Shown piece after piece: positions 9,714 through 41,088 of a stretch of 64,000 nt of DNA. Made by a program: the position numbers and the translations under genes. The stretch lies in UHGV virus genome UHGV-0084588. One strand, 5' to 3'. Source of the stretch: a virus. Under the pieces are notes generated by a model. It had not been told where the DNA came from and made no database searches. It worked only from the letters and a program-made list of their open reading frames with translations. Every line of letters starts with the position of its first letter. Within the stretch, counting starts at the first letter, position 1.

Positions 9714-12026
9714 GTGGAATACATTTCTCCTTTTCGTTTAACGGTAGATGAATACCATCGTGATATTGATGTCAATGATGCCTACCGCGAACAGGTCGCG
9801 TTATACATTCATAACGTGACAGCACAAAAATACCCTTTAGAATTTTGTCGTCAGGAAGTCGATGCTCTTATTGCTCCTGGCGGTGAGTTAGCAACCGAAT
9901 CACCCGTGTGTAAGATGTGGGTGCGAAATCAGAAAACGGGCGATCGTGAGGAAAAATACACTACCGTCGATAAGCTATTTAAAACCGTCATTGACAAACA
10001 GATTATCTCCGCACCTTCGTTAACTTTTTATTTGCCCGAACACGTCAAACGTTCTAAGTTGTCTGAATTCACAGCAGCTAACGTAGCGAAACGTGCTGCG
10101 GTAAAAAAGGAAATGTTTGCAGCAGCAGCAGCGGGCAATGAAGTATTAAAGATCAACAAAAAGAACGAACAGAATGCGGTCAAGACGCTGAACAACGGTA
10201 TGTCTGGTGCATTCTCCTCTCCGTACACGATTATTTTCAACCAGTCTTCACACTCCGTACTGACGTCCACTTGCCGTACTGCAACTTCGTTCGGCAATGC
10301 TGGAAACGAACGTTTATTAGGAGGTAATCGTCATTACGATACCCCGTCACGCATTATTGATCATTTCTTATCTATCGGTACTTTAACCGATTGGAATAGC
10401 TTTAAGAAATGTATGGAGACGTATGAGCTTCATTACCCGTCGGTAGAAGAGGTGATGGAAGTTATTCACTATTCTGCTGATTTCTACTTTAAGAACGAAG
10501 AGGGGATGGAGTTCGTTGAGCATTACGTTAGTAATGTATCACCGTTGACGCGTGCCGCGTTTGTTTACATGGGTGATTTTTTCCACCTGGCTAAATACAA
10601 CGATAAGTTCATGCGCGACTTTATTGGTGCATTAATTACCCCTGAAGCGCGAGTTGATACTGAGGGCTGGACTGATACGGACTGGGTTGCTGCTGAGAAG
10701 ACCATCGATGGTGATATGCAGATTATTATCTCACAGTTCCGTACCGACGTAGTACCGATGGGTAAAGCGTTCAGTGACGTTAAGAAACTTGACGGTAATA
10801 AAAAACCCTTGCCGTGGGATCAGCAGGATGGCTATAAAGAACTAATTCGTTCCGCGCTGTTCTTACAGAAAACGATCGGTAAATACGCACTACTGATTCG
10901 TAATATTCTTACCACGAAAAACTTACCAATCAACATTGCTCGAATGCCGGATGTGGTTCGTCGTGTAGGCGTAGTATCTGATACTGACTCTACAATGATG
11001 ACTGCGCAATGGTGGGCAATCTGGTACACCGGTAAACATTACGGTGAGATAGCGACCCGCGTTTCCAATGCGATGATCTATATTGCGACACAGCACTTAC
11101 GGCATTTGATGGCGAGTATGTCAGCAAACATCGGCGTGGCGAAGGAGCGCTTGTTCCTGTATGCAATGAAGAACGAATTTAAGTTTGATTCGTTTGCATT
11201 GACTACCAAAGCAAAACATTACTTCTCACTGATTACCGGTCAGGAAGGCCAGCTGAAAAAAGATCCCGAGCTGGAAGTAAAAGGTGTGTCTTTACGCACA
11301 TCTAACATTCCTCCGATTATCATGAAGGAATTTAAGAACACTATCAAAGGGCTATGTGAAGTTGTTGCCCGTGGTGATCAGATCGAAATCATTCCGTTAC
11401 TGGAAAAGGTTGCCCAAATCGAACACACGATTATGGATTCTATTCGTTCTGGAAATCCAGGGTATTTGAAAACGACGAACATCAAGGAACGTAGCGCTTA
11501 TAACGAGAAGGATGAGAAGAACTACCATTACCATCGAATGTATAATGCTATCTTTGGTCCGAAGTTTGGTTATTTGGAAGAACCGCCGTACGATGCTGTG
11601 AAACTTCCGGTAACACTGGAAAACAAAACGAAGATTAAAGAATGGATTGACGGTATCGAAGATCCGATCATCAAGAACGGCGCATCGGCGTGGTTTGAGG
11701 AGACAAACTTCCGTAAATATAAAACATTGATTCTACCAGAACACTTGGTGGAAAACTACGGTATCCCTAAAGAGCTTATCGATATCGCAGATATCCGTCG
11801 TACTGCTTTCTCTACGGTTGAACCGTACTATCACATTCTCGAATGCTTAGGTGTGTTCATGATGGATAAAAACAGGATGAGGTTGTTGTCAGATTTCTAC
11901 GATAAAACCGAGGAGAAAGACGAACTGTATAAGGAATTAGCGGAAGTACAATACGTTAAGAAATCGGAGAGGGCAGGGGATGACGAAGAAGACGATGACG
12001 AAGAAGAGGTTTTTGACGACGAATGA
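9714..12026 (+). CDS. putative family-B DNA polymerase, C-terminal (polymerase) fragment, with acidic C-terminal tail
   Basis: Motif B-like KTLNNGMSGAF, motif C VVSDTDS, KKRY-like KAKHY; no exonuclease motifs or motif A in this ORF; GTG start with agagg RBS; B-to-C spacing is unusually long. Confidence 0.45.
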   Translation: MEYISPFRLTVDEYHRDIDVNDAYREQVALYIHNVTAQKYPLEFCRQEVDALIAPGGELATESPVCKMWVRNQKTGDREEKYTTVDKLFKTVIDKQIISAPSLTFYLPEHVKRSKLSEFTAANVAKRAAVKKEMFAAAAAGNEVLKINKKNEQNAVKTLNNGMSGAFSSPYTIIFNQSSHSVLTSTCRTATSFGNAGNERLLGGNRHYDTPSRIIDHFLSIGTLTDWNSFKKCMETYELHYPSVEEVMEVIHYSADFYFKNEEGMEFVEHYVSNVSPLTRAAFVYMGDFFHLAKYNDKFMRDFIGALITPEARVDTEGWTDTDWVAAEKTIDGDMQIIISQFRTDVVPMGKAFSDVKKLDGNKKPLPWDQQDGYKELIRSALFLQKTIGKYALLIRNILTTKNLPINIARMPDVVRRVGVVSDTDSTMMTAQWWAIWYTGKHYGEIATRVSNAMIYIATQHLRHLMASMSANIGVAKERLFLYAMKNEFKFDSFALTTKAKHYFSLITGQEGQLKKDPELEVKGVSLRTSNIPPIIMKEFKNTIKGLCEVVARGDQIEIIPLLEKVAQIEHTIMDSIRSGNPGYLKTTNIKERSAYNEKDEKNYHYHRMYNAIFGPKFGYLEEPPYDAVKLPVTLENKTKIKEWIDGIEDPIIKNGASAWFEETNFRKYKTLILPEHLVENYGIPKELIDIADIRRTAFSTVEPYYHILECLGVFMMDKNRMRLLSDFYDKTEEKDELYKELAEVQYVKKSERAGDDEEDDDEEEVFDDE

Positions 12027-12171
12027 GATTAATTCGATCCCGTGTAACGAGCGTTGGTTCCGACTGAAGCCCGTTGTCAATTTCGAAATCTATTACGATG
12101 ATCCGTTAAACGGGTGGTTAGCACACGTAACCGGACAGAATGTTTTTGTCATGGGATACGAATTACGGTAA
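11980..12171 (+). CDS. small hypothetical ORF (63 aa), doubtful
   Basis: Overlaps the acidic tail coding region of the upstream gene; no clear RBS. Confidence 0.2.
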   Translation: MTKKTMTKKRFLTTNEINSIPCNERWFRLKPVVNFEIYYDDPLNGWLAHVTGQNVFVMGYELR

Positions 12172-12258
12172 AAAGAAAGTAAACGTTGCACCAAAGTGCA
12201 ACGTTTTAACTCTATTATATGGGGATTCGAAAGAATCCTCAGCGGGGGAGAGTAAGTC

Positions 12259-13320
12259 TTAATTTTCTAATGCTTGATATAATGGTAAAATTAACTCGTG
12301 TCGGTAATAGTTTCTAGCCGACCGTGTAAGTTTTTCCAATATCTTCGCATCTTCGAATCTGGCTATACGCACCATTAAATTGGATTTGTATTTGCTCATG
12401 CTCGAGTTGTCGAACTGTAAGCAGAACAACGCCCAATACCAGTTCACGATGTTTCGATGCCAACTACCTTGAATGGTTGAGCCTGGGTCTTTAAAAAGGA
12501 TACGGTCTACCGCAGTGGTAGGGTGTGTCGGATCATCAAAGAACTGTGGAATGTGTGCCATGACCACACCAGGTAAAGGTTTACCTGCACGGAGTGCTTT
12601 ACAAACTTGCGTTGCGTGTTTAATTGAAAGTTCACGCAAAGGCGGTGTAGGAACAACACGAAGTGGCGTTTCGGGTTCGACTTCTTTACCTGTTGCGACA
12701 GCGCGATGAATATTTAAAAAAGCGATATTCATGTAGCTAGGTAGCATACGGTAAATGATGTGTCGTTGCGCGTAAACTACACGGTTAATCGGTTCGGGTT
12801 GTGTTCTGTAATATTGTTCTGCAAGAACATATTGCCAAAGTAACGCAACCAGATTGATTTCGATAATACTGATGCCTCGGGGTTTGCCGTTCCCGAGACC
12901 CCAGTTAAGATTCGTGTACTCGTGATAAAGATAAACTGCAGGTGTGTAGTCACGAAAAGACAGTTCAGGATCAATAGGACGTGCGACGAGTGAAATAATC
13001 TCATCTTGCCCTTCGATAAAGATCCCGTTGAAAACTTGACCATACTCCCCCACAGAAGTTAGGTGTAGCGCATTACCGATATCGGAAAGCTTGCGTCGAC
13101 ATGCCCACTCGATCTCTTCGTAGCTGGGTTCACCCGCATATCCGATAGCCGCTAAGATTTTGAGTACCAGATGGCCTGAAACAACACGGGTTTGAATGGA
13201 CTCTAAATAGTTGCGAATGCGCTGATTATTATTTTTTACGGCACTGACCAATTGTATAGCGGAAGGGTCTTCGAATTTACCCTTTATGGCTGCTTGGTTT
13301 AACTCGGCTTGACTGAACAT
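12259..13320 (-). CDS. hypothetical protein (353 aa)
   Basis: Minus-strand ORF with aaggag RBS; divergent from the 13529 gene. Confidence 0.6.
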   Translation of the reverse strand: MFSQAELNQAAIKGKFEDPSAIQLVSAVKNNNQRIRNYLESIQTRVVSGHLVLKILAAIGYAGEPSYEEIEWACRRKLSDIGNALHLTSVGEYGQVFNGIFIEGQDEIISLVARPIDPELSFRDYTPAVYLYHEYTNLNWGLGNGKPRGISIIEINLVALLWQYVLAEQYYRTQPEPINRVVYAQRHIIYRMLPSYMNIAFLNIHRAVATGKEVEPETPLRVVPTPPLRELSIKHATQVCKALRAGKPLPGVVMAHIPQFFDDPTHPTTAVDRILFKDPGSTIQGSWHRNIVNWYWALFCLQFDNSSMSKYKSNLMVRIARFEDAKILEKLTRSARNYYRHELILPLYQALEN

Positions 13321-13374
13321 GACTTACTCCTTGGGGTTACACATAGGAAACGGTCACAGTCTAACTCACATTGA

Positions 13375-13405
13375 AAAATATCTTAGCTAGATATTATCTA
13401 TGTGA
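13375..13405 (+). repeat. 31-bp direct repeat copy 1 containing palindromic TAGATATTATCTA
   Basis: aaaatatcttagctagatattatctatgtga, near-identical to 13455-13485. Confidence 0.8.
13388..13400. promoter_or_regulatory. candidate promoter/operator TAGATATTATCTA (perfect 6-bp inverted repeat with 1-bp spacer)
   Basis: Palindrome TAGATA-T-TATCTA in divergent intergenic region. Confidence 0.45.
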
Positions 13406-13485: not shown

Positions 13486-13528
13486 ACCAACACTACAATT
13501 GTATTAAACCTTATAAGGATTAAGTAAA

Positions 13529-15376
13529 ATGGCTAAAGAGTTTATTGACAATCAAAACGACGTTGTGACTGGTGCTGCTGGTTCTGCTGCAGATCCAATT
13601 CCGTCTTTCGGTGGCGCGGGAGCTGCTACTGTGGATAATACCAATGCGGCCAACGCTTTTGGTGGGATGTCTAAAAACATCTCCACTTTCGATAAAGCTT
13701 TCGGATACATGTCTTTCGTGTCCACTGCTTCTCAGTTCACTAGCCTGATTGAGAAGATGGCGGAGAAGAACACATACCTGCGTAACTTCCGTTGGGGTGT
13801 CATTGACGGCATCAACTCTGAAATGGGTTCTGCTGCATACGTGGCTGGTCCGTCCGGCGATAACCATAACGAATGGCTCTACGGCATCCTGTTCTTTGAA
13901 CATGGCCAGTCCATCCGTTTCTACGAAATCAACGGTAAAGAAAACTACTACACCCTGGCGCAGCTGTTCAGTCAAGAAGGTGTGATGAACAACATCACTA
14001 ACCAGATTGCAACTCAACACAATCTGCCGAGCGTACAGTTCATGGTAATGAACTGCGTACCGGAACTGGGTAAAACCATGAACGAAGAATGGGCTAACCA
14101 GCTCATGGGCCAGATTGCACTGGGTATCTTCGGTCGTCATTCTGGCTACCTGGGCTACCTGAAAATGACCCGTTCTGATCGCTTCACCGCGCAAGTTAGC
14201 GTAGTTGAAGAAGGTTCTGTAACTGACGTTAACGGTTCCGCACAGCGTGCTGACCTGATGGTTGTGGTTGACCATACTCGTACCGGCAACAACGATAATA
14301 ACCCGACGCTGTTCTCTTCTGAACGCCTCCAGAATTATCCGAGCGTTGCAGGTGTTGGTTACATCAACCTCCGCCATAAAGGTAAACCTCAGACTCTGAC
14401 CAACGGTACTCAGGACCTGCGTCAGCTGGAAGCCGAAGTGGTTGTTTCCCTGATGGATTCTCAGTCCTCTGGGGCAATGGCACCTATCGAGCGTCAGCTG
14501 ATTGAACTGGCCGCGTTCGCACAAATCGCCACTATCGGTGGCTGGCGTGAACGTTTCATGCAGTCGCTGAACAAAACCGATCGCCGCTTCTCCCGCGTTC
14601 TGGAGTATGTAGAATGGGGCAGCGAAAAACCTGACCTGAGCAAAATCGACGGTAACCGTGAAGTTATCGAGAAATGCCTGGACACCTTCGCTAACCCGAC
14701 TGCAGCTCTGGTGGTGAACCATCGTGCAGGTAACGGTATCGGTGGTCTGTCTACTCTCCTGAGCGAAATCGGGATGGGTAACACCAACGCACTGTACACC
14801 CTGTTCAACATCCTGGATAACATGGCCAGCAACGGTGCGACTAAGTTCAGCACTCGCTTCAAAGCACTGCTGGGCAATGTCACCAACTTCGAGTGCAAAC
14901 ACGTTGTTATTGCCGGTTGCCCGACCATCTCTGGCCAGTATTTCAGCAACAGCCAGAAACGTAGCTTCCAGGATATGGACTTGGTTTCCGCTCTGACTAA
15001 AGTGGGTGACAACCAACGCGATGCGATCGACTACATCAGTGCACAGTCCTACTCTCACCGCTATCTGAATGCGCGTGACCAGCGTCTGTACCTGCTGAAA
15101 ATGGCTGCGTCCATGTTCGGTAGCAAACAGCCGCAGGTAACGGGTGAAGCGTCTGACCTGGCGATCAATCCGTTGTTTGGTAAGGCACTGGTGGAATACA
15201 TCACCGAAAACTGCAACTTCCAGGTGAACGGTGTTACCGCAGCGAACAGCCTCACTCACTCTGTGTTTGTTAACACGGGTAATGAGAACTTCGCTCTGTC
15301 TGGTAGCGGTCCTAACGCATTTGGTAGCGATTTCGGTATGTCCTTCGCTGCAACTGACTGGCGTCCGACTTTCTAA
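13529..15376 (+). CDS. abundant 615-aa protein; candidate phage nuclear-shell (chimallin-like) protein, alternatively a major capsid protein
   Basis: Strong bias to E. coli-type optimal codons; tandem promoter repeats upstream; strong terminator downstream; lies directly upstream of the RNAP beta-prime N-terminal gene, which from memory matches the phiKZ gp54-gp55 arrangement. Confidence 0.45.
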   Translation: MAKEFIDNQNDVVTGAAGSAADPIPSFGGAGAATVDNTNAANAFGGMSKNISTFDKAFGYMSFVSTASQFTSLIEKMAEKNTYLRNFRWGVIDGINSEMGSAAYVAGPSGDNHNEWLYGILFFEHGQSIRFYEINGKENYYTLAQLFSQEGVMNNITNQIATQHNLPSVQFMVMNCVPELGKTMNEEWANQLMGQIALGIFGRHSGYLGYLKMTRSDRFTAQVSVVEEGSVTDVNGSAQRADLMVVVDHTRTGNNDNNPTLFSSERLQNYPSVAGVGYINLRHKGKPQTLTNGTQDLRQLEAEVVVSLMDSQSSGAMAPIERQLIELAAFAQIATIGGWRERFMQSLNKTDRRFSRVLEYVEWGSEKPDLSKIDGNREVIEKCLDTFANPTAALVVNHRAGNGIGGLSTLLSEIGMGNTNALYTLFNILDNMASNGATKFSTRFKALLGNVTNFECKHVVIAGCPTISGQYFSNSQKRSFQDMDLVSALTKVGDNQRDAIDYISAQSYSHRYLNARDQRLYLLKMAASMFGSKQPQVTGEASDLAINPLFGKALVEYITENCNFQVNGVTAANSLTHSVFVNTGNENFALSGSGPNAFGSDFGMSFAATDWRPTF

Positions 15377-15403
15377 TAAGTTGGTAAGTAGTAAGCAGTA
15401 GTT

Positions 15404-15447
15404 GAGGGACAGGGGAAAACCCCCTGTCCCTTCCCTCTCTTTTTTTG
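15404..15447 (+). terminator. rho-independent terminator
   Basis: hairpin gagggacagggg-aaaa-cccctgtccc followed by T-run. Confidence 0.7.
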
Positions 15448-15460
15448 TTGAGGATTCGGC

Positions 15461-16828
15461 GTGGAACATAAACTAGAATATTACGGGATTTCAGGGCGAC
15501 TAATTAGTCACGATAAAATGCTACGTGACTGTATACAAGAAGCGGAGGAAAAAGGCTACAAACCCCCGATTATTATCAATGACGTTGCTGCAACGATGGA
15601 TACCATCGAAGCGTCAGAGATGATTAACCAAATACTTCAAAACCGAATCGTTGATGAAACACTCAACTCGGCTCCTATTTGCAGTCTGACCTGCGAATCA
15701 CCTATTACCCATCGTTATAATCTTGGGTTACGTTGCCCACATTGTGGTCATGTTGTTTCTGAACATCGGATTACGTCCGAAGTTTGGCTACGTGCACCCG
15801 ATGAGATAGGTAACTTTATCAATCCACGTTTTTGGTCTCTCTTTAATGCTTTCTTTGGCTCTAAGCTGAAAAAATTTAATCGTAACAAAGTGACGGTAGA
15901 GCGTGGTTCTGATTTGCTGCTATGGCTAATCGATCCGTACTACCATCCAGAAAAGGACGAAGGAACACGTGCTCGTGTGGTGAAAAGAATCCTCAGCGAA
16001 CATGGTTTCGAACGGGGAATTCGAAACTTTATCGACCACCATCGAACCGTCTTTAATATCCTTACGTCCCCGGAAGCTTGGAAGGAGATTTATCCACCGA
16101 CGAAAAACAACCGTTATGAGAGTGAACGCGTACGCTTAGAATGGCGTGAGTTCTTTCAGGAACAATCGTTCTCATTCTTTCCAAGACACCTTCCGATTAT
16201 TTCATCGAAACTGATCGTTACAGAGGAGCGCCGACAAGGTATCTTTATCGATCCCGTTTACACCAGTGCCATCGATGCAGTAAAAAATGTGGCGTTGTTG
16301 TACACGAATGCACGTCGTATCGAACCACGATTTATTATTCGTCGCGCGATCAAAGCGAATCGACAACTTGCGTATTTCTATATTGACCATCGTCAGGAAG
16401 TGATGGAAGGTAAACCTGGGTTCTATCGGGCAAAACTCGGGTCAACGCACGTACCGTGGGGCGGACGTGTGACTATCTCTCCTATCTCTGAACCTCACGA
16501 TGCGTTGAAAGTTATTGCGCCTTGGCGTTGGTTAGTTCCGTTGGCGAGTGTTCACATTGAGAACAAGTTAGGTCGACGTGACTACACACCTCGACAGTGT
16601 GAACGAATTATTGCATTCGCGGCAATGCAGTATGTACCGTTGGTACATGAAATTATTAATGAGCTGATTAAAGAATCCCCCGGCGGATTCGGTTTAATGT
16701 TGGAAGTTCTACGTAACCCAACATTGGTTCAGCTTTCTATTCAGACATTGTTTATCTCGGCGGTACTGACAGATGTAACACAATGTTCTCTGCGTATTTC
16801 TGATCGCGTCATCAAAGCACCTAATGCT
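15461..16828 (+). CDS. RNA polymerase beta-prime-like subunit, N-terminal fragment, exon 1
   Basis: Zn-ribbon C-x4-C...C-x2-CG; GKPGFYRAKLG...GGRVTISP matches [41 protein letters not shown] matches NRAPTLHRLGIQAF; ends ...KAPNA where bacterial beta-prime has YNA|DFDGD; GTG start. Confidence 0.75.
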
Positions 16829-17178
16829 AAATACTGGCCCACTAGACGGGAAACCTCTAGTGCGTATCCCTCGAATTGCTGGGAACTCCTAAAGCTTACG
16901 ATCCCGACAGGGTGGCGAAAGTCAGAAACAATTCGTAAGATAGCCTATGCTAACCAATAATGCTAAGGGTTGAGATAATGGATAACCAGCAGCGATGAAA
17001 ATCGTTCAACGACTATCGAAAGGGTAAAACCGAGTAGAGTAGCTGCTTAGTTTAGCGGCGAAGTGGGGGAGACCTACGGGTAGCAATACCTACGGTTATG
17101 ATATAGTCTGTGCCCATGTGAAAGCATGGGAGGGTGTCATTGCACACCTGCTCCAAAAGGAATGGGGTGGACAAACAG
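16829..17178 (+). ncRNA. group I self-splicing intron (350 nt, no internal ORF) interrupting the NADFDGD motif
   Basis: Exon 1 ends in U and intron ends in G; joining gives ...APNA-DFDGDQ...; core-like elements (consensus from memory): P aattgctgggaa (16874-16885), Q aaccagcagc (16984-16993), R gttcaacgacta (17004-17015), S gatatagtc (about 17100-17108). Confidence 0.75.
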
Positions 17179-18475: not shown

Positions 18476-19144
18476 ATGGATCAAGAACCGGGAAAATTTA
18501 ATGGGGTGCCCATTGAAGAACTTTCTGGCCGTGCTAAGTTTGAGTTTGAGAAACTTCTTGAAATGGAAGAGATGCTTAAACAGGGCCAGGGTGTGTGCAG
18601 CGTGTTTACTGAATCGATGTTCCGTCGACAAGGTTTACCGCTGTTGTCGGGGATGCTGGATGGTACGTTTAACGAAGATACCTGGACGGATTATGTAGGG
18701 AGCGCTTTCGTTCCGTTACAGATTGTTTCGGATTCGGATAATTCAAAACTGCTCTTTACGATCCCGCCTCTGCTTAATACCGGTCGGTCACTTCAACATG
18801 TTGACGGTCAGCCATCGCTCACCGAAGAAACAGAGATGATTCGCCAGCAAGCCGATATCATTTCCGAGGTCGGTGAACGGCAGATGTATCAGATGATCGA
18901 TTATACGCTGGATGGTATCGAACAGTTATCGTACGAAGAAAATGCACTTCGTGCAAAACAGGTTATCGATCTGTTAAACTGGATCTTCCGTCGTTATAAC
19001 GTATCAGGGCAATTACCTTATCCTGAAGGACTTGAAGAATTGTGCAACCGTATCCAAGGACGAAAGAAACCTGCAACGGCGGCACAACCTGAACAGTCCT
19101 CCCCTGCTAAGGGAAGAAGAATCATCGATGAAGAGGATTACTAA
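18476..19144 (+). CDS. hypothetical protein (222 aa)
   Basis: ATG with taagg RBS immediately after upstream stop. Confidence 0.55.
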   Translation: MDQEPGKFNGVPIEELSGRAKFEFEKLLEMEEMLKQGQGVCSVFTESMFRRQGLPLLSGMLDGTFNEDTWTDYVGSAFVPLQIVSDSDNSKLLFTIPPLLNTGRSLQHVDGQPSLTEETEMIRQQADIISEVGERQMYQMIDYTLDGIEQLSYEENALRAKQVIDLLNWIFRRYNVSGQLPYPEGLEELCNRIQGRKKPATAAQPEQSSPAKGRRIIDEEDY

Positions 19145-20276
19145 TCCGCCACCGAAACCAGTTGGCGTCAAACGCATTTTCTCAACGGGCGATGTACATT
19201 TACTGCACCGTCGTGTACCGACGTGGCATATTGTTAACGTGCTCAAGGAAACCTTAGAACGGTTCGATAATACGATTGACGCTATTTATATAGCTGGCGA
19301 TTTATTTGATGATTCCCGGCATTTGCGGCAAGAAGATTCTCAAGAAGCCATAGGGTTTTTAACCTGGTTATTGCTCTGGGCCAAACAGACGAATACCGCT
19401 ATTCGTGTCTTGGAAGGAACACCCTCCCACGATCATAAACAATCGAAAATCGTTGAAGAGTTAAATCAGGCGGTGAGTGCAGATTGTTTGTATCTGGATA
19501 AGATTGGGGTGTTTTACGACGAGGCGTTAGGAGCGACTATCGGTTGGGTCCAGGACGAGTATAAAGCCCTGGGTTCTGAGTCTATTGATGCTGCCGCAAC
19601 AGAACAGGAAATGGCTGAATTATTAGCCACGCGCGGTATACAGCAGATGGATTTCTGCTTTATGCATGGCTGCTTTCAGTTCCAAGTTCCCGTTGAGTCT
19701 ACCCGCTTTTTCCATACAGATTTTTGGGAACCGTTAGTCAAGCATTTGATTATCATCCACCACGATCATCGTAGGAAACAATTGGGTAAGATTCGTGTAC
19801 CAGGCAGCCCCGATCGCCTGGCAATGGGTGAAGAAGAGGACAAAGGCTTTGCTATTGTCGATTTCACTCCTGATTTAGCCAGGGATTATTTCTTGGTTAA
19901 TGAACGCGCTTGCCCGCAGGTTAAAATTGCTGCGGAGGAGGACTACGAATCGCAGTACGCGAAATGTCTCTCTGCGCTTGAGTATATTGATACTCATCCG
20001 TCCTCGGTAATAGGACGATTGGAAATTGAATATTATCCCGATTCTCCATTGGCGGAAGCCATTACTCGGTGGAAATCGCAATATTCATTCCATATTTCAG
20101 GTACGCGTATACGTACGCCTGAAGAGGAGCAAATTCTCGCAGCCGGTTTTGCTATCGACGCAGAGGTCGAGGAAACCATCTCTGAAGAGAATGTTGAAGC
20201 GATTTTGTTAGAAGCATTAGTGCCGTTTAAATACGATGCACAAATTGTCACTGACATTATCAGGAGCATCAAATGA
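19128..20276 (+). CDS. calcineurin-like metallophosphoesterase, Mre11/SbcD-like nuclease candidate
   Basis: Motifs GDVHLL (D-x-H), AGDLFDD (GDxxD), GTPSHD (GNHD-like) in canonical order; start taken at in-frame ATG 19128. Confidence 0.5.
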   Translation: MKRITNPPPKPVGVKRIFSTGDVHLLHRRVPTWHIVNVLKETLERFDNTIDAIYIAGDLFDDSRHLRQEDSQEAIGFLTWLLLWAKQTNTAIRVLEGTPSHDHKQSKIVEELNQAVSADCLYLDKIGVFYDEALGATIGWVQDEYKALGSESIDAAATEQEMAELLATRGIQQMDFCFMHGCFQFQVPVESTRFFHTDFWEPLVKHLIIIHHDHRRKQLGKIRVPGSPDRLAMGEEEDKGFAIVDFTPDLARDYFLVNERACPQVKIAAEEDYESQYAKCLSALEYIDTHPSSVIGRLEIEYYPDSPLAEAITRWKSQYSFHISGTRIRTPEEEQILAAGFAIDAEVEETISEENVEAILLEALVPFKYDAQIVTDIIRSIK

Positions 20277-29374: not shown

Positions 29375-31473
29375 TGAAGGGCACTCCAGTTCACGTGCGT
29401 GATCTGTGTAAACTGAACTCGGATCAGGTGTGGCTATTGCGCGGCAGATATGAAGTGACGTTTGATGACGGGGTAACCTTAAACATGTCAGGACGTCACA
29501 TTAAAATCAGTTGGCCTTATTGGGGGCTAACACGATTTTATCCGCAGATCCCAATCAGTTCGCAAATGGCGTATAAACATGGCGATACCGCTACAGACGA
29601 CGCACATCTGAAGTTTATGTCATTGGCAGCTGTAGCGGCTCGTAAAGCGGGTGTGGATTTAGCAGACACCCGTTATTTATTACAGCAGCACGTTTATGCG
29701 GATGCGTTTAATTTATCGGTGAAAAATCTGTTATCGTATTGCGTCACGATTGACTACGATACGATGATGGAAATTTACCAACACCGAAACTTTACGCAGA
29801 TTCATCAGTGGGCACAAATGTATCCTACTGGGTACGACGAAGAAGGTCGGGATATGGTTGAGGAAGCGTATCTTCTTATCGAAGATATCTTCAAAGACCC
29901 ACAACTTTGTTTAAACCCCGTGGTGATGTCGGTCTTGGATAAGACCATCAAAATGAACCAGGTTCTTCAGGCGTATATACGCGGGAAAACATCGGAGATT
30001 GATTCTCGTGTTTATTCTAACCAGGTATGGGAAGGTTTCTTCACGGGCCTACATTCTGTAATTAGCCGTCTGAAAGAAGCAGGTGCAACGTCACGTTCTC
30101 ACCTGTATAACACCGATAAAATCGCTGATGCGGAATATGCGTCACGTAAGCTACAGTTAGCAGCTAACGTGTTAATGTATTTCGAATACGACGATTGTGG
30201 TACGCATCACGTTCATCGTCACACGTTTACAGAAAGTAAACTGGAGCGTAAGAAGTACGATGCGATGGTGGGAATGCGTTATCGTTTTGAAGGTGTGGGT
30301 GGCCCGTGGCTACGATTCGAGAAAGGGGAGTTTGAGAAAGTCTTAGGCAAACCTATTGAGTTTCGTACCGCGATGTGTTGTAAGGGGATGGCACGTCAAA
30401 GCATTTGTGCAACCTGCATGGGTGATTTGATTTATAACCTTTCGCCGGGAACGTCCCCAGGTCACTTGGCCTCAACCTCGATATCTGAAAAGGGTACACA
30501 GGGGATTCTCTCAACGAAACACTTGGACTTCTTACGCTATCTGCTGAATCTGGTGCTGACTCCAAGAATGCGGGATTATCTTGGTGAGTATAAACACAAC
30601 TCCGTAAAAGGATTGAGTTTACGGGAGAAACCGCAGTACGGTAATTGGGATGAATACCAACTCGTTATTTCTGATGAAGTTTATTCTGAAATCAGCCAAA
30701 TCGCGTATCATGACGATTTGGAAGTGATCGACGAAACGGCATTGCCGGAGATTAACGAACTGACCTTTTTGCGGTTGGATGAAGCTGGGAATGTGTTGGC
30801 TGAAGATCCCATTGACGTCCGTATGGGGGTTTGTGGTAACTTCTCGAAAGCCTTCTTGCATTTCTTCTTGAAGCAGCGTGATAACATTACATTCCCGTCG
30901 AAGAAACTGGTACGGATTCCCCTGAAAGGATGGAAACCGAGTTGGCCGATACTAATTTATACGAATCGGTCTGAATCTATGGCGGAGTTTGTAGCAGGGT
31001 TAGAATTGAAACTTCGTTCGGTTGCGTCTGATAAATCGGATACTTTCGAACAGTTCTCTGATGACTCAATGCGTTTGAGCAAGAAGTCGGGTAAGGTAAA
31101 ACCAACGACACTGGTTCAGATGCGCGGTGCTACGGAGAAACAATGTACGCACGCGTTATTTGATGTGTTTAAATATATCCAACGTAAGCTCGGTGGTATT
31201 CCGATGACACACATCGCGATTATGCTGGCGATATCACGCGTTGAATCACCGACCAATCCTTTCCCGGCGGTTGGGTTTGATAGTGAAGATGCTGATGTGA
31301 TGGATGGCAAACGTTTCGAGGATCACAACACGTTGATTGCGATGCGTTCAGCTGTACCGATGTTGTTATTCGAAGGCCAACAGAAAAACCTGGACAACGT
31401 GCGTTTCTACACGTCGCGTAAACGTCCGGCGTCGTTATACGACAATACGGTGGCCGCGACTATCATTGAGTAA
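29374..31473 (+). CDS. RNA polymerase beta-prime-like subunit, C-terminal fragment
   Basis: FEYDDCGTHH matches VTEDDCGTHEG; CATCMGDL...SISEKGTQGILSTKHL matches CAHCYGRDL...SIGEPGTQLTMRTFH; TAATG overlap with the beta gene. Confidence 0.7.
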   Translation: MKGTPVHVRDLCKLNSDQVWLLRGRYEVTFDDGVTLNMSGRHIKISWPYWGLTRFYPQIPISSQMAYKHGDTATDDAHLKFMSLAAVAARKAGVDLADTRYLLQQHVYADAFNLSVKNLLSYCVTIDYDTMMEIYQHRNFTQIHQWAQMYPTGYDEEGRDMVEEAYLLIEDIFKDPQLCLNPVVMSVLDKTIKMNQVLQAYIRGKTSEIDSRVYSNQVWEGFFTGLHSVISRLKEAGATSRSHLYNTDKIADAEYASRKLQLAANVLMYFEYDDCGTHHVHRHTFTESKLERKKYDAMVGMRYRFEGVGGPWLRFEKGEFEKVLGKPIEFRTAMCCKGMARQSICATCMGDLIYNLSPGTSPGHLASTSISEKGTQGILSTKHLDFLRYLLNLVLTPRMRDYLGEYKHNSVKGLSLREKPQYGNWDEYQLVISDEVYSEISQIAYHDDLEVIDETALPEINELTFLRLDEAGNVLAEDPIDVRMGVCGNFSKAFLHFFLKQRDNITFPSKKLVRIPLKGWKPSWPILIYTNRSESMAEFVAGLELKLRSVASDKSDTFEQFSDDSMRLSKKSGKVKPTTLVQMRGATEKQCTHALFDVFKYIQRKLGGIPMTHIAIMLAISRVESPTNPFPAVGFDSEDADVMDGKRFEDHNTLIAMRSAVPMLLFEGQQKNLDNVRFYTSRKRPASLYDNTVAATIIE

Positions 31474-31515: not shown

Positions 31516-33225
31516 ATGTACGAATTCCACATGACCTTTACGAGTATGGGCGTGAGGGTCGAAGTCCCTTGTCGGCCCATAGAGTCGGCAATTTTAAAGT
31601 GGGCAGAAGAGAATATGCACGCCCCGAAAATGGGCAAACAATACGGAAGAATCATCACCGAACGTGGCGATCCGTATTACGCACATATTCCTTCTATCCG
31701 TACCTTTATATTCCACCGGAATTTTTCCGAACGTTTACGAATCATTATTAACCGAACGGCCGCTGAGTTTGCAATTGACTTCAAACTCTACGAGCACCAC
31801 TTAACCCAGGGAACACCTTACCGTTGTACGTTTGAAAACTATGGCTTTAAGATGATAGAAGAAGATGAATCGTCGCGCTTCTTTTATCAGAACGGCGTTG
31901 TAGAAACGGCGTGCCAGCCGAACCGGCTGCAAACCATCTTTGAGATTGGTACAGGGATGGGTAAGTCGAAGACGAACATGAAAGTGATGGTTCGTAAAGG
32001 GGTAAGAACGTTATTGATCCATCGACCCACGTACATTTCTAAATGGTTATTCGACTTAACGGAAGATCCCACCGGACTTCGTGAATCGAAAGAAGACGTC
32101 TTGGTTATACAGGGCGTACAAGCGGTCTACGAAGCGCTAGAAATGGGTGAAAGTGGTGAGTTGGATAAACGTGGCATCAAAGTTATTATCGTCTCTACAG
32201 TGACGCTACAGCGGTTTTTGAAAGAGTATATCAATACCGCCGCGACTAATCCGGTGAATATCGACGATTTCTATAACACGTTAGGTGTTGGGTTTTTATC
32301 GATGGATGAAGTGCATGAACATTTCCACTTGGTGTACATGGCTGGAATTATGTTGAATCCGCCACCCTCTGTTGAAATGTCGGCTACACTCCAACCGGGT
32401 GAATCGAAAGCGTTCTTGGCAGAACGGTATAAAGAACGTTTCCCACAAGAGGCACGTATCACCATTCCGATTATTCCTGCGGTACACGTGAAAGCGTTGT
32501 ATTACCGGATTGAGAATAAACGGTTTGCGTGGTGGGCATCGAAAATGACCCCGTACAACCACAAACTATTTGAAGGGAAGTTGATTAGCGAAAACCTTCA
32601 TCAGTCGTACGCGGATATGGTCTGGGATGTAATAGAACGCACGTATCTGGCAGGGTATCAACCTGGTCAGAAAGTGTTGGTGTTGTTTGCAACTGTCGCG
32701 ATGTGCGAGTTCTTTACGGAGTATGTGCGAGAGAAGCTTGCACAATCCGATAAGTTCCACGCTTTGATGGTTGCGAAATATAACGCAGGAGATTCGTATG
32801 ACGACTTCATTCAAGCGGATTTCTCTATTTCAACACCAGGGAAAGCGGGTACTGCGGTTGACAAACCGGGGTTGGTTCACATGTACATTACCACCCCTGT
32901 GGAAGACCAGCAGTTAAACCGTCAGATGGCCGGACGCCCACGTAAGATCCTCCACAACGACTGGGGTGAACTCGATCCCGTTGTGTGGTTATTCCATTCT
33001 TACTCGATACCGAAGCATTGTAATTACTTGAATGCGCGTCAAAAATCACTGAGTGATTCTGTGTTGTCGTTTAAGATAGCCACCTCACCGTATATTGTAA
33101 GGAAAGCTGATGTTACTACCGCCGCAGCCAACAGAGCCAACCGCGCCGTATGCCGGTCTGAACTTAGCAAGTTTTCTCGAAAAAGTTTTAAAGGCGTATC
33201 CCGACGTTTTAGACGTCGTAAATAA
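31516..33225 (+). CDS. SF2 (DEAH-type) helicase/ATPase
   Basis: Walker A GTGMGKSKT, Walker B/motif II DEVH, motif III SAT, motif VI QMAGRPRK in canonical order; 3' end overlaps next ORF so true stop region is uncertain. Confidence 0.65.
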   Translation: MYEFHMTFTSMGVRVEVPCRPIESAILKWAEENMHAPKMGKQYGRIITERGDPYYAHIPSIRTFIFHRNFSERLRIIINRTAAEFAIDFKLYEHHLTQGTPYRCTFENYGFKMIEEDESSRFFYQNGVVETACQPNRLQTIFEIGTGMGKSKTNMKVMVRKGVRTLLIHRPTYISKWLFDLTEDPTGLRESKEDVLVIQGVQAVYEALEMGESGELDKRGIKVIIVSTVTLQRFLKEYINTAATNPVNIDDFYNTLGVGFLSMDEVHEHFHLVYMAGIMLNPPPSVEMSATLQPGESKAFLAERYKERFPQEARITIPIIPAVHVKALYYRIENKRFAWWASKMTPYNHKLFEGKLISENLHQSYADMVWDVIERTYLAGYQPGQKVLVLFATVAMCEFFTEYVREKLAQSDKFHALMVAKYNAGDSYDDFIQADFSISTPGKAGTAVDKPGLVHMYITTPVEDQQLNRQMAGRPRKILHNDWGELDPVVWLFHSYSIPKHCNYLNARQKSLSDSVLSFKIATSPYIVRKADVTTAAANRANRAVCRSELSKFSRKSFKGVSRRFRRRK

Positions 33226-36512: not shown

Positions 36513-36514
36513 GT

Positions 36515-36593: not shown

Positions 36594-37448
36594 ATGATTG
36601 ACATTTATACCGATTACGCCGCCGTTCTTACCGTCAATCGTGCGGAAGAACGTGCTGCGCCTTTCCTGGACTTAGTAACGCTGTGCATGGATTACGGTTA
36701 CGATGTTGCGTTAAGCGATGTGTATTGGCAACCGTCGTCTGATCCTGCCGACGAAACCGTAAGACTGGAAGGGATTATTGTAAAATGCGCAGTGGCGTTA
36801 GGTAACCGTTTAGGCGTTGCTTTAAACCCACAAGAAGTTTTCCGTAAACCGAAAGAGACCGTACGTATTCTAGACGGCATTACGTCTAAATTCGAAGAGT
36901 TCGAAGACACCGATACGTTATACGGTCTTGTGATGTCTGGAGAAACGCCAGAGTTTATCCTGGAAAGTATCTGCCGTTACGTGTACGGTGACGATAATAT
37001 CCATTTTGAAGATTTGGTCATTCGTGTTTCACCCCGTGTAATGACAGTGATGCGTAATTATCTCTCAGCTATGGTTGTGGATGAGCAACTCGCTGTAGGT
37101 AACGATGTACGTCTGACGCGTATTGCAGAATACTTGCGTCTTTATCCGCAAAATCCCTCTGCGTTCGTATTCTTAAACTTACCTGAAGATCCTGATTTGA
37201 CGGTTGTCCAACAATCGTTAGTCTTTGACGTCGAGGATTACAGCGAAACAGAATTGCTCGAGATGTATACGGTAGGACTTTCGATTATCGATAACGATGA
37301 CTTCGATGACGCGTATGCTGATCTTTCGACGAACTTAGAGAAACTTAATAATGATGGGTTACAACCCATTACTGTTTTACAACCTGCTTTAAAAAGCCTA
37401 CGGGTGATTTATCGGGTTGAGGAGGCAGAGCACGATGACGAGGTTTGA
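36594..37448 (+). CDS. hypothetical protein (about 284 aa)
   Basis: ATG at 36594 with ggaaaagg RBS (ORF track begins at TTG 36582). Confidence 0.5.
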   Translation: MIDIYTDYAAVLTVNRAEERAAPFLDLVTLCMDYGYDVALSDVYWQPSSDPADETVRLEGIIVKCAVALGNRLGVALNPQEVFRKPKETVRILDGITSKFEEFEDTDTLYGLVMSGETPEFILESICRYVYGDDNIHFEDLVIRVSPRVMTVMRNYLSAMVVDEQLAVGNDVRLTRIAEYLRLYPQNPSAFVFLNLPEDPDLTVVQQSLVFDVEDYSETELLEMYTVGLSIIDNDDFDDAYADLSTNLEKLNNDGLQPITVLQPALKSLRVIYRVEEAEHDDEV

Positions 37449-38736
37449 GTTCTTAGTAGCGGCATGTAAAGCCGAAGCATGGCGTCGCTTGGTTTGGCGC
37501 ATTGCTATCTTTAACATGTCGGTGTTTCCAACTGGGCGTGAAGAACCCGAAGCGTTTGATATTACGTACATTGACGGCTTACCGCATTATTACGCTGTAG
37601 AAGACGGCAAGGGCAGTTGGGAACCGATTACCGACGGTGTAAAGGATCAGGAGCTGTTTATCCCTGAAGAACAGTTCGAACTCCGTCCCGACGACTATCC
37701 CGGTCTAGAAGGTCCTATCCCCACGACAGTAGGGCGATACGTTTTTAACTGGATTGTTATCTGGTATGCTTTTGGTACACGTTTACCTTATCTGGCGATT
37801 TCACAAAACCCGTTGGAATACCGCAAAGAGATGCATCGGCGCTGTTTAGACCATGAATCCGATGAGCCAGAAAACGAAGGTGCGATTCGTCCGAGTATGA
37901 TTGAACGCTTTGTAAGCGGCTTACACGAACTCGCTCCTCTCACGTCAGGTATTGCACCAACCGGTACGTTACGAAGCCTTACGGTGCATCCTGATGCGTA
38001 TAAAATTCGCGATGCGTTGCTGTTGAAGCATAAGGATGAATTAGACGATCCTGCCGTTATCGTTAAGATTGAAAAAGCGTTGGATGAGTTAGACAAAGAG
38101 TGGTTGTCAGGTGACCAATCTATTGAGTTTTATAACTCGCCGAAATCACGGATGCGTCGTCGTAAATTAATGTTGATGTACGGTATTGAGTCGTCTTTTC
38201 AGGAAGGGGGACATTACACGCTCATTCCGAACGCGTTAGTTGAAGTTGATAAGGCGGGGATGGAAAACCTGGTTGCGAAATTCAACTCTATCCGTGAAGG
38301 TTCATTCTCTCGTGGTGCAGAAACAGCGAAAGGGGGTGAGCAGGTACGTATTATCCAGATGATTTTCCAGAACCATCGAATCGTCCCTGGTGACTGTGGA
38401 ACGAAACTAACGTATCCGGTTGTGATTACCGAAGATAACGTAAAACGTTACGTTGGGATGAATGCGATGGTTAATGGTAAACTGACGCCACTGACTGAGG
38501 AATATTTAAAGCAGCAGTTAGGTAAGGTGGTGCGGTTACGCCGACCCATCTTATGTCAGTATGGCCACATCGACACCTGCACAGCGTGTTCGTCAGCGAA
38601 TAAAGGGGAAGAACCTCGTGCAATCGCTGCGGATATATCCTCGGCGTTCTCTAACGTTATGTCCGTGGCAATGGCCGCGATGCACGGTAAAGAGACTGTG
38701 GTACACGAATTTAATCCATCGATCCACATTACGTAA
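37435..38736 (+). CDS. second RNA polymerase beta-prime-like C-terminal fragment (paralog of 29374-31473)
   Basis: SFQEG...REGSFSRGAETAKGG matches NFREG...HGARKGLADTALKTANSG; IVPGDCGT matches VVTEDDCGT; CTACSSANKGEEPRAIAADISSAF matches CAHCYG...NKGEAIGVIAAQSIGE; same 65-aa DCGT-to-CxxC spacing as 29374. Confidence 0.55.
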   Translation: MTRFEFLVAACKAEAWRRLVWRIAIFNMSVFPTGREEPEAFDITYIDGLPHYYAVEDGKGSWEPITDGVKDQELFIPEEQFELRPDDYPGLEGPIPTTVGRYVFNWIVIWYAFGTRLPYLAISQNPLEYRKEMHRRCLDHESDEPENEGAIRPSMIERFVSGLHELAPLTSGIAPTGTLRSLTVHPDAYKIRDALLLKHKDELDDPAVIVKIEKALDELDKEWLSGDQSIEFYNSPKSRMRRRKLMLMYGIESSFQEGGHYTLIPNALVEVDKAGMENLVAKFNSIREGSFSRGAETAKGGEQVRIIQMIFQNHRIVPGDCGTKLTYPVVITEDNVKRYVGMNAMVNGKLTPLTEEYLKQQLGKVVRLRRPILCQYGHIDTCTACSSANKGEEPRAIAADISSAFSNVMSVAMAAMHGKETVVHEFNPSIHIT

Positions 38737-38749
38737 GGATTATTAGCCA

Positions 38750-39259
38750 ATGGCAACTAAAGATATTACGACACAAGACGAGCGTACGTCAGCTGTAAGA
38801 CGTGCTGAGGAAAATACGGTAAATTACAGCCAAGATGACGCGTACCAGGTGCGACTTATTGCTACTCAGCTCGATGAGGCTGGCGCGGCAATTAGCCAAA
38901 ATAAACCGAAAGATACTCCAGAAGCTGACGATGCTTTCCGTAAGCTGCATCAATCGTTCCGTTCGTTATTTGAACTACGCGGTCAGGCGTTCATTGATGC
39001 TTTCAACGTGTTCGTTGAAGCTGCAATTAAACACAAGCGCGGTATCTTCTACTATCCGAATGTAAACTACCATTTAGATTGGTTTTACGATTCCGCCGAA
39101 CGTGAAACATACGTCGTGTTCATCAATATGTTAGTACGTTTCGCAAATTCCCAGGATAAAGCAAATTTCGCTCAGCGTGACAACGTTGGACGTTTGGTAC
39201 AACGTGTGACCGATCCAGAGCTGCAACACTTACTGGCTTACTGCTTCAACGCGGCATAA
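38750..39259 (+). CDS. hypothetical protein (169 aa)
   Basis: ATG with aagga RBS. Confidence 0.55.
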   Translation: MATKDITTQDERTSAVRRAEENTVNYSQDDAYQVRLIATQLDEAGAAISQNKPKDTPEADDAFRKLHQSFRSLFELRGQAFIDAFNVFVEAAIKHKRGIFYYPNVNYHLDWFYDSAERETYVVFINMLVRFANSQDKANFAQRDNVGRLVQRVTDPELQHLLAYCFNAA

Positions 39260-39261
39260 AA

Positions 39262-39309
39262 GTATTACCCTACTCCCATCGGGAGTAGGGTAACGTTTAT
39301 TTTTTTTTA
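39262..39309. terminator. bidirectional terminator; hairpin nearly identical to 44622-44669
   Basis: ttaccctactccc-atc-gggagtagggtaa flanked by A/T runs, between convergent genes. Confidence 0.7.
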
Positions 39310-41088
39310 CTTTGCGGCTTTGATGTATTCAAAAGGATCGGTAATTGCTTCTCCTTGTCGACGTAGAAAGGCTTCTAAGACGTCGTTTTTATCGGGTAAT
39401 AGGAAGAAATCTGTCGCGATCTCCATTGCGTTAACGCGACCTGCAGTAAGGTTAATACCGACGCGACGCCGTACTTCTTCAGGAACACCGTGAATGCTTA
39501 ATAACTCGATTAACGTCGTCTCACGAGACTGGTTCATCATGTTTGTTGCGGATGGGTATGCCTGGGTTAAGTCAGCATCTGCGGTTTGACCACGGAAAGC
39601 CGTGTAGAAATCATCAACCTCCTTGATGATGTTTCGTAGGCCATTCTCTGCGTTCATACACGCGGTCAATGTAACAATCCAACCGTCTGTCCCAATGACT
39701 TCATTGTCAAAATCGTTACGCATCGCGCTACCCACACAGCCGATAACCAGACCTTGTTCGTAGAGGTAGTACGTGTACGCAATACAGATTCGCTTCGGCA
39801 GTGAAGGGAAGATATCGTACATCGAATAACCTGCCAACACTGAAATAGCAGAAGACAGATCGTTCGTCTTTTTATCAAGCAGAACAATCATCAGGTTATC
39901 GAAGATGTTATAAACGCAGTATTCTAACGGGAAATCTTTCTGTGCCTTTAAGTGCCATTCCAATTTTTCCTCGTAGGGTAAATCCGGTAAGTCTAACTTG
40001 TTTAAACCCAACTCGGTTTCCAGTATCGCGTTAAGTTTGTAAGAAGGACGTTGCCCTTCGTGTACACGCAATGAACGGAATAGACACATCGCATCTACAC
40101 AGTAGAATGACGCCGTACAATAAAGAATGTGCCACTGCTGTGAAGGTGCTTTTGTTAGTGACTTTGATTCCGTTTTCTTCGATGCTTCGTCTTTCTTAAA
40201 GTAGACACGACGGTACTGTTTCGGCACGTCTGGATGACAGAAGACGTCTTCCGGTGGAATGCCCGCTGCTTCTAAAGCTTCTAACATACGTGAAATATCG
40301 AACTCGTGGTTCCATGCGACAAGTAAGTCAGGGAGACGAGGGTGAATTTCCTCAAACATCCGTTGAATACAACAGCCCGAATTGAGACATTCGTAAACGA
40401 AGATTTTGTAACCGTCGATAACGTTTTTGTATTTAACGATAGGATTGTCGTTCTCGTCTTTTCCACGAAAAGCGATTTTAGAAAGCAATTCCTGAGCACG
40501 ATTGACGAGTCGCGCTTCAAAGTTTTCGCGTCCGCAGCGTGTGACGTAGTCTTTCGTAGCAAAGAAATGAATCTCGTCGTCTAAAACAAAACTCATAATC
40601 CAGGGGTCTCGAGATTTGTCTTCTTCTCGAGTTTCCACGTCGTATACACAGATGCGGTTGGGTGAAACAGCATTAGGCCATTTACGCATGTACTTTTCTT
40701 TAATCCAGCTCGTAATGGGCAAATCGGCCCAGTAAACAAACGGTGAAGTACAAACTTGGCGGAGTGGTTTCTTTTTGTCGGGAAAACGAATCCCCAAACC
40801 CATCTGTATGGTTGAGGACATCATTACATCCGTTGTTAAATATTCCTGACACTTACTACGTTCCTCGTATTCCTTCTTTTCCTTGTGGTTACGATGTTGT
40901 GGTAAAGTAATGTAGATGGGACGTTTCAGATTTTCACGCATGACAATTCGTGGGATATATCTGCCATCTTTAGTATGGACGACCTCCTTTATGAGCACGA
41001 AGTCGTTTTCTTTCTGCTGATCGGTTGCGTAAGAAACAAACTTGCACTCCTTGGCAATAACGTCTTCCGGTGCGTAATAGTTATTCAT
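39307..41088 (-). CDS. putative family-B DNA polymerase, N-terminal fragment (3'-5' exonuclease domain plus motif A)
   Basis: Exo I YDVETRE, Exo II AWNHEFD, Exo III-like FYCVDA, motif A-like DLTQAYPSA in canonical order; start at internal ATG 41088 with RBS. Confidence 0.45.
   Translation of the reverse strand: MNNYYAPEDVIAKECKFVSYATDQQKENDFVLIKEVVHTKDGRYIPRIVMRENLKRPIYITLPQHRNHKEKKEYEERSKCQEYLTTDVMMSSTIQMGLGIRFPDKKKPLRQVCTSPFVYWADLPITSWIKEKYMRKWPNAVSPNRICVYDVETREEDKSRDPWIMSFVLDDEIHFFATKDYVTRCGRENFEARLVNRAQELLSKIAFRGKDENDNPIVKYKNVIDGYKIFVYECLNSGCCIQRMFEEIHPRLPDLLVAWNHEFDISRMLEALEAAGIPPEDVFCHPDVPKQYRRVYFKKDEASKKTESKSLTKAPSQQWHILYCTASFYCVDAMCLFRSLRVHEGQRPSYKLNAILETELGLNKLDLPDLPYEEKLEWHLKAQKDFPLEYCVYNIFDNLMIVLLDKKTNDLSSAISVLAGYSMYDIFPSLPKRICIAYTYYLYEQGLVIGCVGSAMRNDFDNEVIGTDGWIVTLTACMNAENGLRNIIKEVDDFYTAFRGQTADADLTQAYPSATNMMNQSRETTLIELLSIHGVPEEVRRRVGINLTAGRVNAMEIATDFFLLPDKNDVLEAFLRRQGEAITDPFEYIKAAK

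Follow-up and report, generated by a model that had tools for sequence, protein, structure and literature searches.

Two separate genes very probably encode one split family B DNA polymerase in a phiKZ-like jumbo phage

Results

Two intact genes with family B polymerase motifs

The virus genome UHGV-0084588 was analyzed over a stretch of 64,000 nucleotides, which we call the window (the whole of the DNA analyzed). The window carries two genes that a sequence-only reading had taken to be the separated parts of one family B DNA polymerase (PolB): a plus-strand open reading frame (ORF), referred to below as the C half, and a minus-strand ORF, referred to as the N half (Table 1). Both ORFs were confirmed at their coordinates and are intact, with ribosome-binding sites and terminators. 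They lie 27.3 kb apart on opposite strands, and more than 20 genes separate them, including genes for RNA polymerase, SbcD, a helicase, and many other proteins. In its longest mechanical form, the minus-strand ORF reaches a TTG at 41202. Since the aligned N-half homologs are nearly all 543-624 amino acids (aa) long, with one of 698 aa, and the alignment begins at the ATG at 41088, 39307-41088 (593 aa) is the right extent of this gene.

Residues 11-729 of the C half matched the Pfam family PF20286 ("Divergent Family B DNA polymerase"; E 3.5e-279), and the full-length protein matched phrog_2927 (E 0). The N half matched phrog_3011 ("DNA polymerase"), also over its full length (E 1.6e-249). The Pfam families PF20286 (divDNApol) and PF20287 (SH3DP) were described by Iyer, Anantharaman, Krishnan, Burroughs, and Aravind (2021), and the PolBr-PhiKZ group was described by Kazlauskas and Venclovas (2011). 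Judged from these sequence matches, the motif content of the two ORFs is far beyond chance. In the profile searches suggested as a check of the sequence-only reading, both ORFs fell into polymerase families. The Pfam scan gave no match for the N half, and the match of the C half to PF00136 stayed below threshold. Single-sequence searches of solved structures gave no match for either half, and profiles were required.

The N half carries the exonuclease motifs and motif A

The family profile of the N half gave a single continuous alignment to gp43 of phage RB69, with columns 145-523 placed onto gp43 106-432 (hhalign, probability 97.4%, E 1.3e-11). This alignment spans Exo I-III and then runs through motif A (gp43 D411 and Y416) and the NISPET segment. 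An hmmsearch of the same profile against PDB sequences gave the same picture. Conservation was counted over 67 diverse homologs, down to 26% identity. The motifs of a DEDD 3'-5' exonuclease, Exo I (DxE), Exo II (Nx2-3FD), and Exo III (Yx3D), were found in the expected order, and the PolB motif A (Dx2SLYPS, with a catalytic aspartate and a steric-gate tyrosine) was found on the same protein. All four motifs that the sequence-only reading had placed on the minus-strand ORF are thus present, and they are invariant in 65-67 of the 67 homologs.

In the alignment, D506 is the equivalent of RB69 D411, and Y511 is the equivalent of the steric-gate residue Y416. The N519-x-S-x-E-T-T segment corresponds to RB69 NISPET, and the tail downstream of it is helical and family-specific. 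In the model of the isolated N half, residues 463-530, including motif A, had a predicted local distance difference test (pLDDT) score below 50 despite their conservation. Besides an N-terminal domain and a 3'-5' exonuclease domain, the N half contains the first segment of the palm, which bears motif A.

The C half carries motif B, motif C, and KxY

Alignments of the C half to known PolBs start at about residue 87, and the junction domain that precedes this point has no aligned counterpart in RB69. The C-half profile aligned to residues 1021-1099 of Pol zeta, which comprise the pre-finger strand, the finger helices, and motif B (hmmsearch, PDB sequences), and to residues 706-755 of RB69, the KKRY region. 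When the profile was compared by hhalign with the single RB69 sequence, the KKRY region alone was recovered (probability 18%). A pairwise alignment placed K157-TLNNGMSG onto RB69 K560-LLINSLYG. We assigned the fingers and motif B because of the Pol zeta match, the sub-threshold PF00136 match, and the pairwise alignment taken together. Motif B (Kx3NSxYG) is present as the variant K157-TLNNGMSG165, which is located where the second finger helix ends in the model of the C half (finger helices H115-139 and H143-165), and motif C (DTD) and the KxY of the palm were found on the same protein. The plus-strand ORF had been read as carrying motif B, motif C, and a KKRY-like block; all of them are present, and they are invariant in 76 of 76 homologs, the set over which C-half conservation was counted (down to 34% identity). 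The motif C hairpin was barely formed in the isolated model (pLDDT 66).

The unusually long distance between motifs B and C had made the sequence-only reading tentative. The spacing is real, about 258 residues compared with about 50 in RB69 gp43, and that doubt is removed, because the extra length is a conserved, all-helical insert located between palm helix 1 and motif C. A long helical insert before motif C is a hallmark of the family (Iyer et al. 2021). The C half contains the junction domain, the fingers, the remaining palm with the helical insert, the thumb, and an acidic tail. As had been read, neither ORF carries the motifs of the other.

A break within the palm separates motif A from motif B

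About 70 residues follow the NISPET equivalent in the N half. In the C half, the first element of PolB type, at about residue 87-100, corresponds to the SPNG strand just ahead of the fingers. Therefore, the break maps to the palm, at about RB69 residues 432-455, after motif A and before motif B. The proposal of one polB split between these two motifs is supported by the RB69 and Pol zeta alignments, and the parts of a PolB fold (N-terminal, exonuclease, palm, fingers, and thumb) are all found in the two proteins. We placed motif A on the N half because this is the only assignment that preserves the order A-B-C and gives full invariance.

We consider it very probable that the products of the two ORFs are the two obligatory subunits of one enzyme, the replicative family B DNA polymerase of a phiKZ-like jumbo phage, and that the active site of this enzyme is composite. 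The N-terminal domain, a DEDD-type 3'-5' exonuclease for proofreading, and the first strand-helix of the palm would come from the N subunit. This palm segment would bring motif A, with D506 as a metal ligand and Y511 as the steric gate for the sugar. The C subunit would supply the fingers with motif B, the remaining palm with motif C (D423 and D425) and KxY, the insert of about 200 residues, and the thumb. With motifs A and B on either side of a break within the palm, only the 1:1 heterodimer would have a polymerase active site. Three conserved segments had low confidence in the models of the isolated subunits: residues 463-530 of the N half, as noted above, residues 165-180 of the C half, which follow motif B (pLDDT below 50), and the motif C hairpin. 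These are pieces that would pack together in the palm of an intact PolB, which is suggestive of a composite site.

The halves of the polymerase of phage PhiKZ are the closest characterized counterparts. Basu et al. (bioRxiv, 1 October 2026, PMC13648687) reported that DNAP-N and DNAP-C of PhiKZ form a stable 1:1 complex, the core polymerase, which is active and was solved at 2.1 Å by cryo-electron microscopy. In the same study, a third subunit, Rhc, which has an RNase H and a clamp-like domain, binds beside the thumb and boosts synthesis. No Rhc- or RNase H-like ORF was found in the 64-kb window, either with Pfam and PHROG over 46 of its ORFs, among them most of the larger ones, or with phmmer and an Escherichia coli RNase HI query. 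The gene for Rhc presumably lies in another part of the genome, which is about 240 kb long.

Several points weigh against two obligatory subunits with a shared active site. The C half reached only 21.2 bits against PF00136 (fingers region), for which the gathering threshold is 23 bits. The insert of the C half does hold an invariant aspartate, D288. According to Kazlauskas and Venclovas (2011), the catalytic aspartates both lie in the C-half ORF; in the protein of Pseudomonas phage EL (NC_007623, 1036-3138), they marked D229 and D398 as active-site residues. The abstract of Basu et al. does not confirm which subunit bears motif A in the PhiKZ structure. For this phage, the heterodimer is predicted from sequence comparison and from models of the isolated subunits.

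In a different explanation, which follows the reading of Kazlauskas and Venclovas (2011), the two ORFs are independent enzymes: the C half would be a stand-alone polymerase, with D226 or D288 as the first metal ligand, and the N half would be a loosely associated exonuclease comparable to E. coli epsilon. For Iyer et al. (2021), too, the exonuclease was a stand-alone protein with its gene elsewhere, and the invariance of D288 fits such a polymerase. When the EL protein was compared with the C half, D398 was the second aspartate of DTD, and D229 corresponded to D226 of the window (nt 10389-10391). This position is Asp in 64 and Asn in 10 of the 76 homologs, and it lies past motif B, in the helical insert. 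D288 is at a helix-helix junction in the C-half model, and not at the end of a palm strand. It belongs to an invariant GDxxHLAKYN block (G287-D288...N296, 10575-10601, plus strand), in which D288 and N296 are conserved in 76/76. The block inside the helical insert superficially resembles motif A, but its place and its secondary structure are wrong. Both D288 and D226 were rejected as the motif A aspartate on position and secondary structure, and D226 is also variable. The motif A of the N half, on the other hand, is textbook, invariant, and collinear with D411-Y416-NISPET of RB69, and the order A-B-C is preserved only with motif A on this half. In addition, PhiKZ forms a stable 1:1 core complex. 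We thus regard two independent enzymes as very unlikely, and from the alignments the 2011 assignment of motif A to EL D229 is probably a mis-assignment.

With the two ORFs taken as subunits of one enzyme, the sequences at the junction may be what holds it together. We propose that the N-half tail (residues 527-593) is a docking element onto the C-terminal subunit. The two halves are probably held together by these extra helices at the C-terminus of the N subunit and by the additional N-terminal domain, 95 residues long, of the C subunit. The same extra sequence (67 aa in the N half, 95 aa in the C half) could be taken as a sign of post-translational joining by a split intein, or of trans-splicing of the transcripts, either of which would give a single mature polypeptide. 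The PolB of Nanoarchaeum equitans and cyanobacterial DnaE are precedents for split inteins. No Hint or intein match was found in either protein with Pfam at E values up to 1. At the junction, the C half has an alpha/beta domain of 95 residues that folds with high confidence and far exceeds a C-intein in length, and the 67-aa tail of the N half is shorter than known N-inteins. The junction sequences are conserved family-wide as parts of the mature proteins. PhiKZ gives a two-subunit complex and no ligated chain. Joining into one chain is therefore extremely improbable, and two subunits that remain separate polypeptides are preferred.

The split is common to about 300 phage genomes

In tblastn searches, the C half was found in 299 GenBank phage records (301 places) and the N half in 300 (304 places), almost always at one place per record. 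The two halves had nearly the same distribution over genera, for example with equal numbers in Pseudomonas (81/81), Erwinia (62/62), Vibrio (23/23), Serratia (21/21), and Aeromonas (20/20) phages. No match spanning both halves was found in these roughly 300 records. Identity to the window proteins tracks between the C and N halves, with 75/76% in ChrisDB, 35/35% in FLC9, and 28/28% in FishSpeaker. The nearest GenBank relatives of both ORFs are Salmonella and Erwinia jumbo phages such as SPN3US, JN03, and ChrisDB, with about 74% nucleotide and about 75-80% amino-acid identity. The layout is kept in close relatives: the ChrisDB genome has its C half on the plus strand at 12.6 kb and its N half on the minus strand at 42.6 kb, and JN03 is alike.

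In a profile search of 1.84 billion representatives, the N half had 1725 relatives, and among the best 150 of them, which were 489-894 aa long, none was long enough for a fusion. The longest, P0215 (894 aa), and other long N-half relatives had no Pfam polymerase match appended. Each half is present once in the 64-kb window, and no further PolB-like ORF, such as an intact polB that would have contradicted the split, was detectable there. The ORFs also have what is expected of the split polymerase of chimalliviruses, that is, PF20286/phrog_2927 and phrog_3011 matches, separate single-copy genes that co-occur, the helical insert, and an SH3DP gene upstream of the C half.

This distribution also bears on whether polB was broken recently by accident, through a rearrangement or a mobile element, leaving a pseudogene or reflecting an assembly artifact. 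gp43 broken by insertion of a homing endonuclease is known in some T4-like phages, where homing endonucleases have fractured the gene into gp43A and gp43B, and phiKZ-like genomes are heavily rearranged. Here, about 300 phage genomes share the split, at identities as low as about 25%, and the catalytic residues are invariant. The halves do not flank a homing endonuclease, and they are separated by the distance, strand change, and more than 20 intervening genes described above. Both ORFs are intact, with ribosome-binding sites and terminators. A recent accident is hardly credible, and the two genes are best seen as an established pair of subunit genes.

Genomic setting

The source of the window is a jumbo phage of the phiKZ-like (chimallivirus) type that is close to Salmonella phage SPN3US and the Erwinia Machinavirus phages, and the neighboring genes are typical of phiKZ-like phages. 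Four RNA polymerase beta/beta' pieces (phrog_2987, phrog_3295, phrog_3015, and phrog_2962) are interspersed with the polymerase halves (Table 1). RNA polymerase beta/beta' in four genes is a second split enzyme typical of phiKZ-like phages. Two long ORFs overlap on opposite strands, at 13520-15469 (minus, 649 aa) and 13529-15376 (plus). Only the plus-strand ORF has a PHROG family (phrog_8316, E 1.2e-232), and the 649-aa minus-strand ORF is probably a shadow ORF.

Table 1. Coordinates of the two polymerase genes, their motifs, and surrounding features in the window
Feature	Coordinates	Strand	Details
C half (predicted C-terminal subunit) gene	9714..12026	+	770 aa; GTG start; AGAGG ribosome-binding site; PhiKZ DNAP-C ortholog
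Junction domain, residues 1-95, alpha/beta	9714..9998	+	pLDDT 85-96; H20-35, H42-53, E65-71, E78-84, H85-95
Motif B, K157-T-L-N160-N161-G-M-S164-G165	10182..10208	+	Invariant 76/76; aligned with Pol zeta and RB69 K560
Helical insert, ~200 residues (~205-410)	10326..10943	+	All-helical, H211 to H398; contains invariant D288 and N296
Motif C, S422-D423-T-D425-S426	10977..10991	+	Invariant 76/76
KxY, K499-A-K501-H-Y503	11208..11222	+	K501 and Y503 invariant; aligned to RB69 KKRY 705-708
R-L-L-S-D-F-Y motif (723-729) and acidic tail (730-770)	11880..12023	+	Motif family-wide; tail clade-specific
N half (predicted N-terminal subunit) gene	39307..41088	-	593 aa; ATG start; PhiKZ DNAP-N ortholog
Exo I, D150-V-E152	40633..40641	-	Invariant 67/67; aligned to RB69 D114-I-E116
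Exo II, N260-H-E-F-D264	40297..40311	-	N 65/67, D 67/67; aligned to RB69 Exo II
Exo III, Y393-N-I-F-D397	39898..39912	-	Invariant 67/67; aligned to RB69 YNIID
Motif A, D504-A-D506-L-T-Q-A-Y511-P512-S513	39550..39579	-	D504, D506, Y511, and P512 invariant 67/67; aligned to RB69 406-431
N519-x-S-x-E-T-T and helical C-terminal tail (residues 527-593)	39310..39534	-	N519 and T524 invariant; helices pLDDT 56-75
SH3DP (small SH3-fold protein) gene	9191..9610	+	PF20287, E 1.1e-30; phrog_3235
Terminator-like hairpin and T-run	9618..9641	+	10-bp stem, 5 GC pairs, T-rich tail; between SH3DP and C-half genes
Promoter-like motif, TTACCCAC-N6-TATAG	9664..9682	+	36 nt upstream of C-half GTG
Promoter-like motif, TTACCCAC-N7-TATAG	41115..41134	-	31 nt upstream of N-half ATG 41088
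Terminator-like hairpin	39264..39294	-	14-bp stem; just 3' of N-half gene, common to convergent gene 38750-39259
Split multisubunit RNA polymerase piece	15461-16960	+	PHROG
SbcD	19032-20276		
Split multisubunit RNA polymerase piece	27137-29374	+	PHROG
Split multisubunit RNA polymerase piece	29374-31473	+	PHROG
Superfamily 2 (SF2) helicase	31516-33225		
Split multisubunit RNA polymerase piece	37417-38736	+	PHROG
Tail-tube protein	47624-48922	-	
phiKZ_IP internal head protein	51639-52910		
phiKZ_IP internal head protein	52993-54258		

Transcription signals of the two genes

The SH3DP gene lies directly upstream of the C half. This neighborhood was described by Iyer et al. (2021), and SH3DP has been suggested in the literature to be an accessory protein of the polymerase. 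Because a strong terminator-like hairpin lies between them, SH3DP and the C half may be separately transcribed here. Each half looks monocistronic and flanked by terminator-like hairpins.

A promoter-like motif precedes both halves. The pattern TTACCCAC-N6/7-TATAGC has exactly two sites in the window, but this test is circular, since the pattern was derived from those two sites. A relaxed pattern with mismatches showed no excess over shuffles. JN03 and ChrisDB partly keep the motif for both genes, as T-run-ACG-N14/15-TATAG[C/G]. Related sites at 2315-2339 (plus) and 3757-3779 (plus) precede the genes 2385-3032 and 3791-4195. The motif may be a phage promoter class that co-regulates both halves, with statistics that are post hoc. 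Each half would be its own transcription unit, and the common motif would permit coordinated expression. For this phage, we infer the composite active site, the docking role of the junction, and the co-regulation.

The acidic tail of the C half

The acidic tail noticed in the sequence-only reading is present. It has 41 residues (730-770; 11901-12023, plus strand), 21 of which are Asp or Glu, and it directly follows RLLSDFY, a motif that has been noted as clamp-binding-like (Kazlauskas and Venclovas 2011). The tail was found solely in SPN3US/Seoulvirus/Machinavirus-like relatives. In many other clades, the C-half protein stops within a few residues of RLLSDFY. Acidic tails act as tethers in gp4 and gp2.5 of phage T7. 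The tail of the C half might be a DNA mimic that gates the binding of DNA or Rhc, or it might be a tether to the single-strand-binding protein or helicase of the phage. The tail adjoins the clamp-binding-like peptide at the end of the thumb, beside the place where Rhc binds in PhiKZ. It is a tentative and rather doubtful proposal that the tail is a lineage-specific regulatory module and that, separately, both halves are under one promoter class (T-run-ACG-N14/15-TATAGC) that sets a 1:1 supply.

Discussion

A two-piece polymerase is already known as the standard replicase of phiKZ-like (nucleus-forming) phages, and it is ordinary for the family. The term "split subunit DNA polymerase" was quoted for phiKZ-like phages by Thomas et al. 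(2016). The window proteins belong to the same two protein families as those of PhiKZ and are about 34% identical to the proteins of phiKZ-type Pseudomonas phages over 94-95% of their length. As in PhiKZ, the two genes are separate, and they occur in a setting with split RNA polymerase pieces and phiKZ_IP head proteins. The phage of the window, in contrast, belongs to another genus-level lineage (SPN3US/Seoulvirus-Machinavirus-like). Its C half has the tail of about 41 residues, whereas the phiKZ-type proteins are without it, and the complex described by Basu et al. is that of PhiKZ only. Similar to the PF20286/PolBr-PhiKZ proteins, the C half has a full-length PF20286 match, a helical insert before motif C, and SH3DP immediately upstream. 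The 2011 and 2021 papers differ from our assignment in that they treated the polymerase as the product of the C half and the exonuclease as a separate enzyme from the other ORF, whereas here motif A is placed on the exonuclease-bearing half.

RB69/T4 gp43 is the best structural and profile match for both halves, and its motifs Exo I-III, A, B, C, and KxY follow the same order. Unlike the split enzyme, gp43 is a single chain without the 200-residue insert or the junction domains, and its clamp is the gp45 ring. A family B polymerase encoded by two genes that reconstitute one enzyme is also found in gp43A/gp43B of some T4-like Aeromonas phages, in the split PolB of Methanothermobacter thermautotrophicus, and in the split-intein PolB of N. 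equitans. The halves of gp43A/gp43B are 2-3 kb apart, with a homing endonuclease gene between them in one case, and the PolB of N. equitans undergoes protein trans-splicing. In these T4-like phages, M. thermautotrophicus, and N. equitans, the splits are lineage-restricted breaks in otherwise canonical PolBs.

The motif-level reading of a raw sequence can thus recover a real split enzyme, although no new biology follows from this. Many GenBank relatives label one or both halves "hypothetical protein". In the JN03 record (MT799840, locus 701-854), the annotated start of the C half is about 51 codons downstream of the start of the tblastn match. This start and the "hypothetical protein" labels are probably annotation errors in the public records. 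The annotations of the relatives can be improved, and the promoter-like motif and the acidic tail are cheap leads on the replication of chimalliviruses. Judged from the alignments and the subunit models, placing motif A on the exonuclease-bearing subunit would correct the 2011 paper and would imply that neither subunit polymerizes DNA alone.

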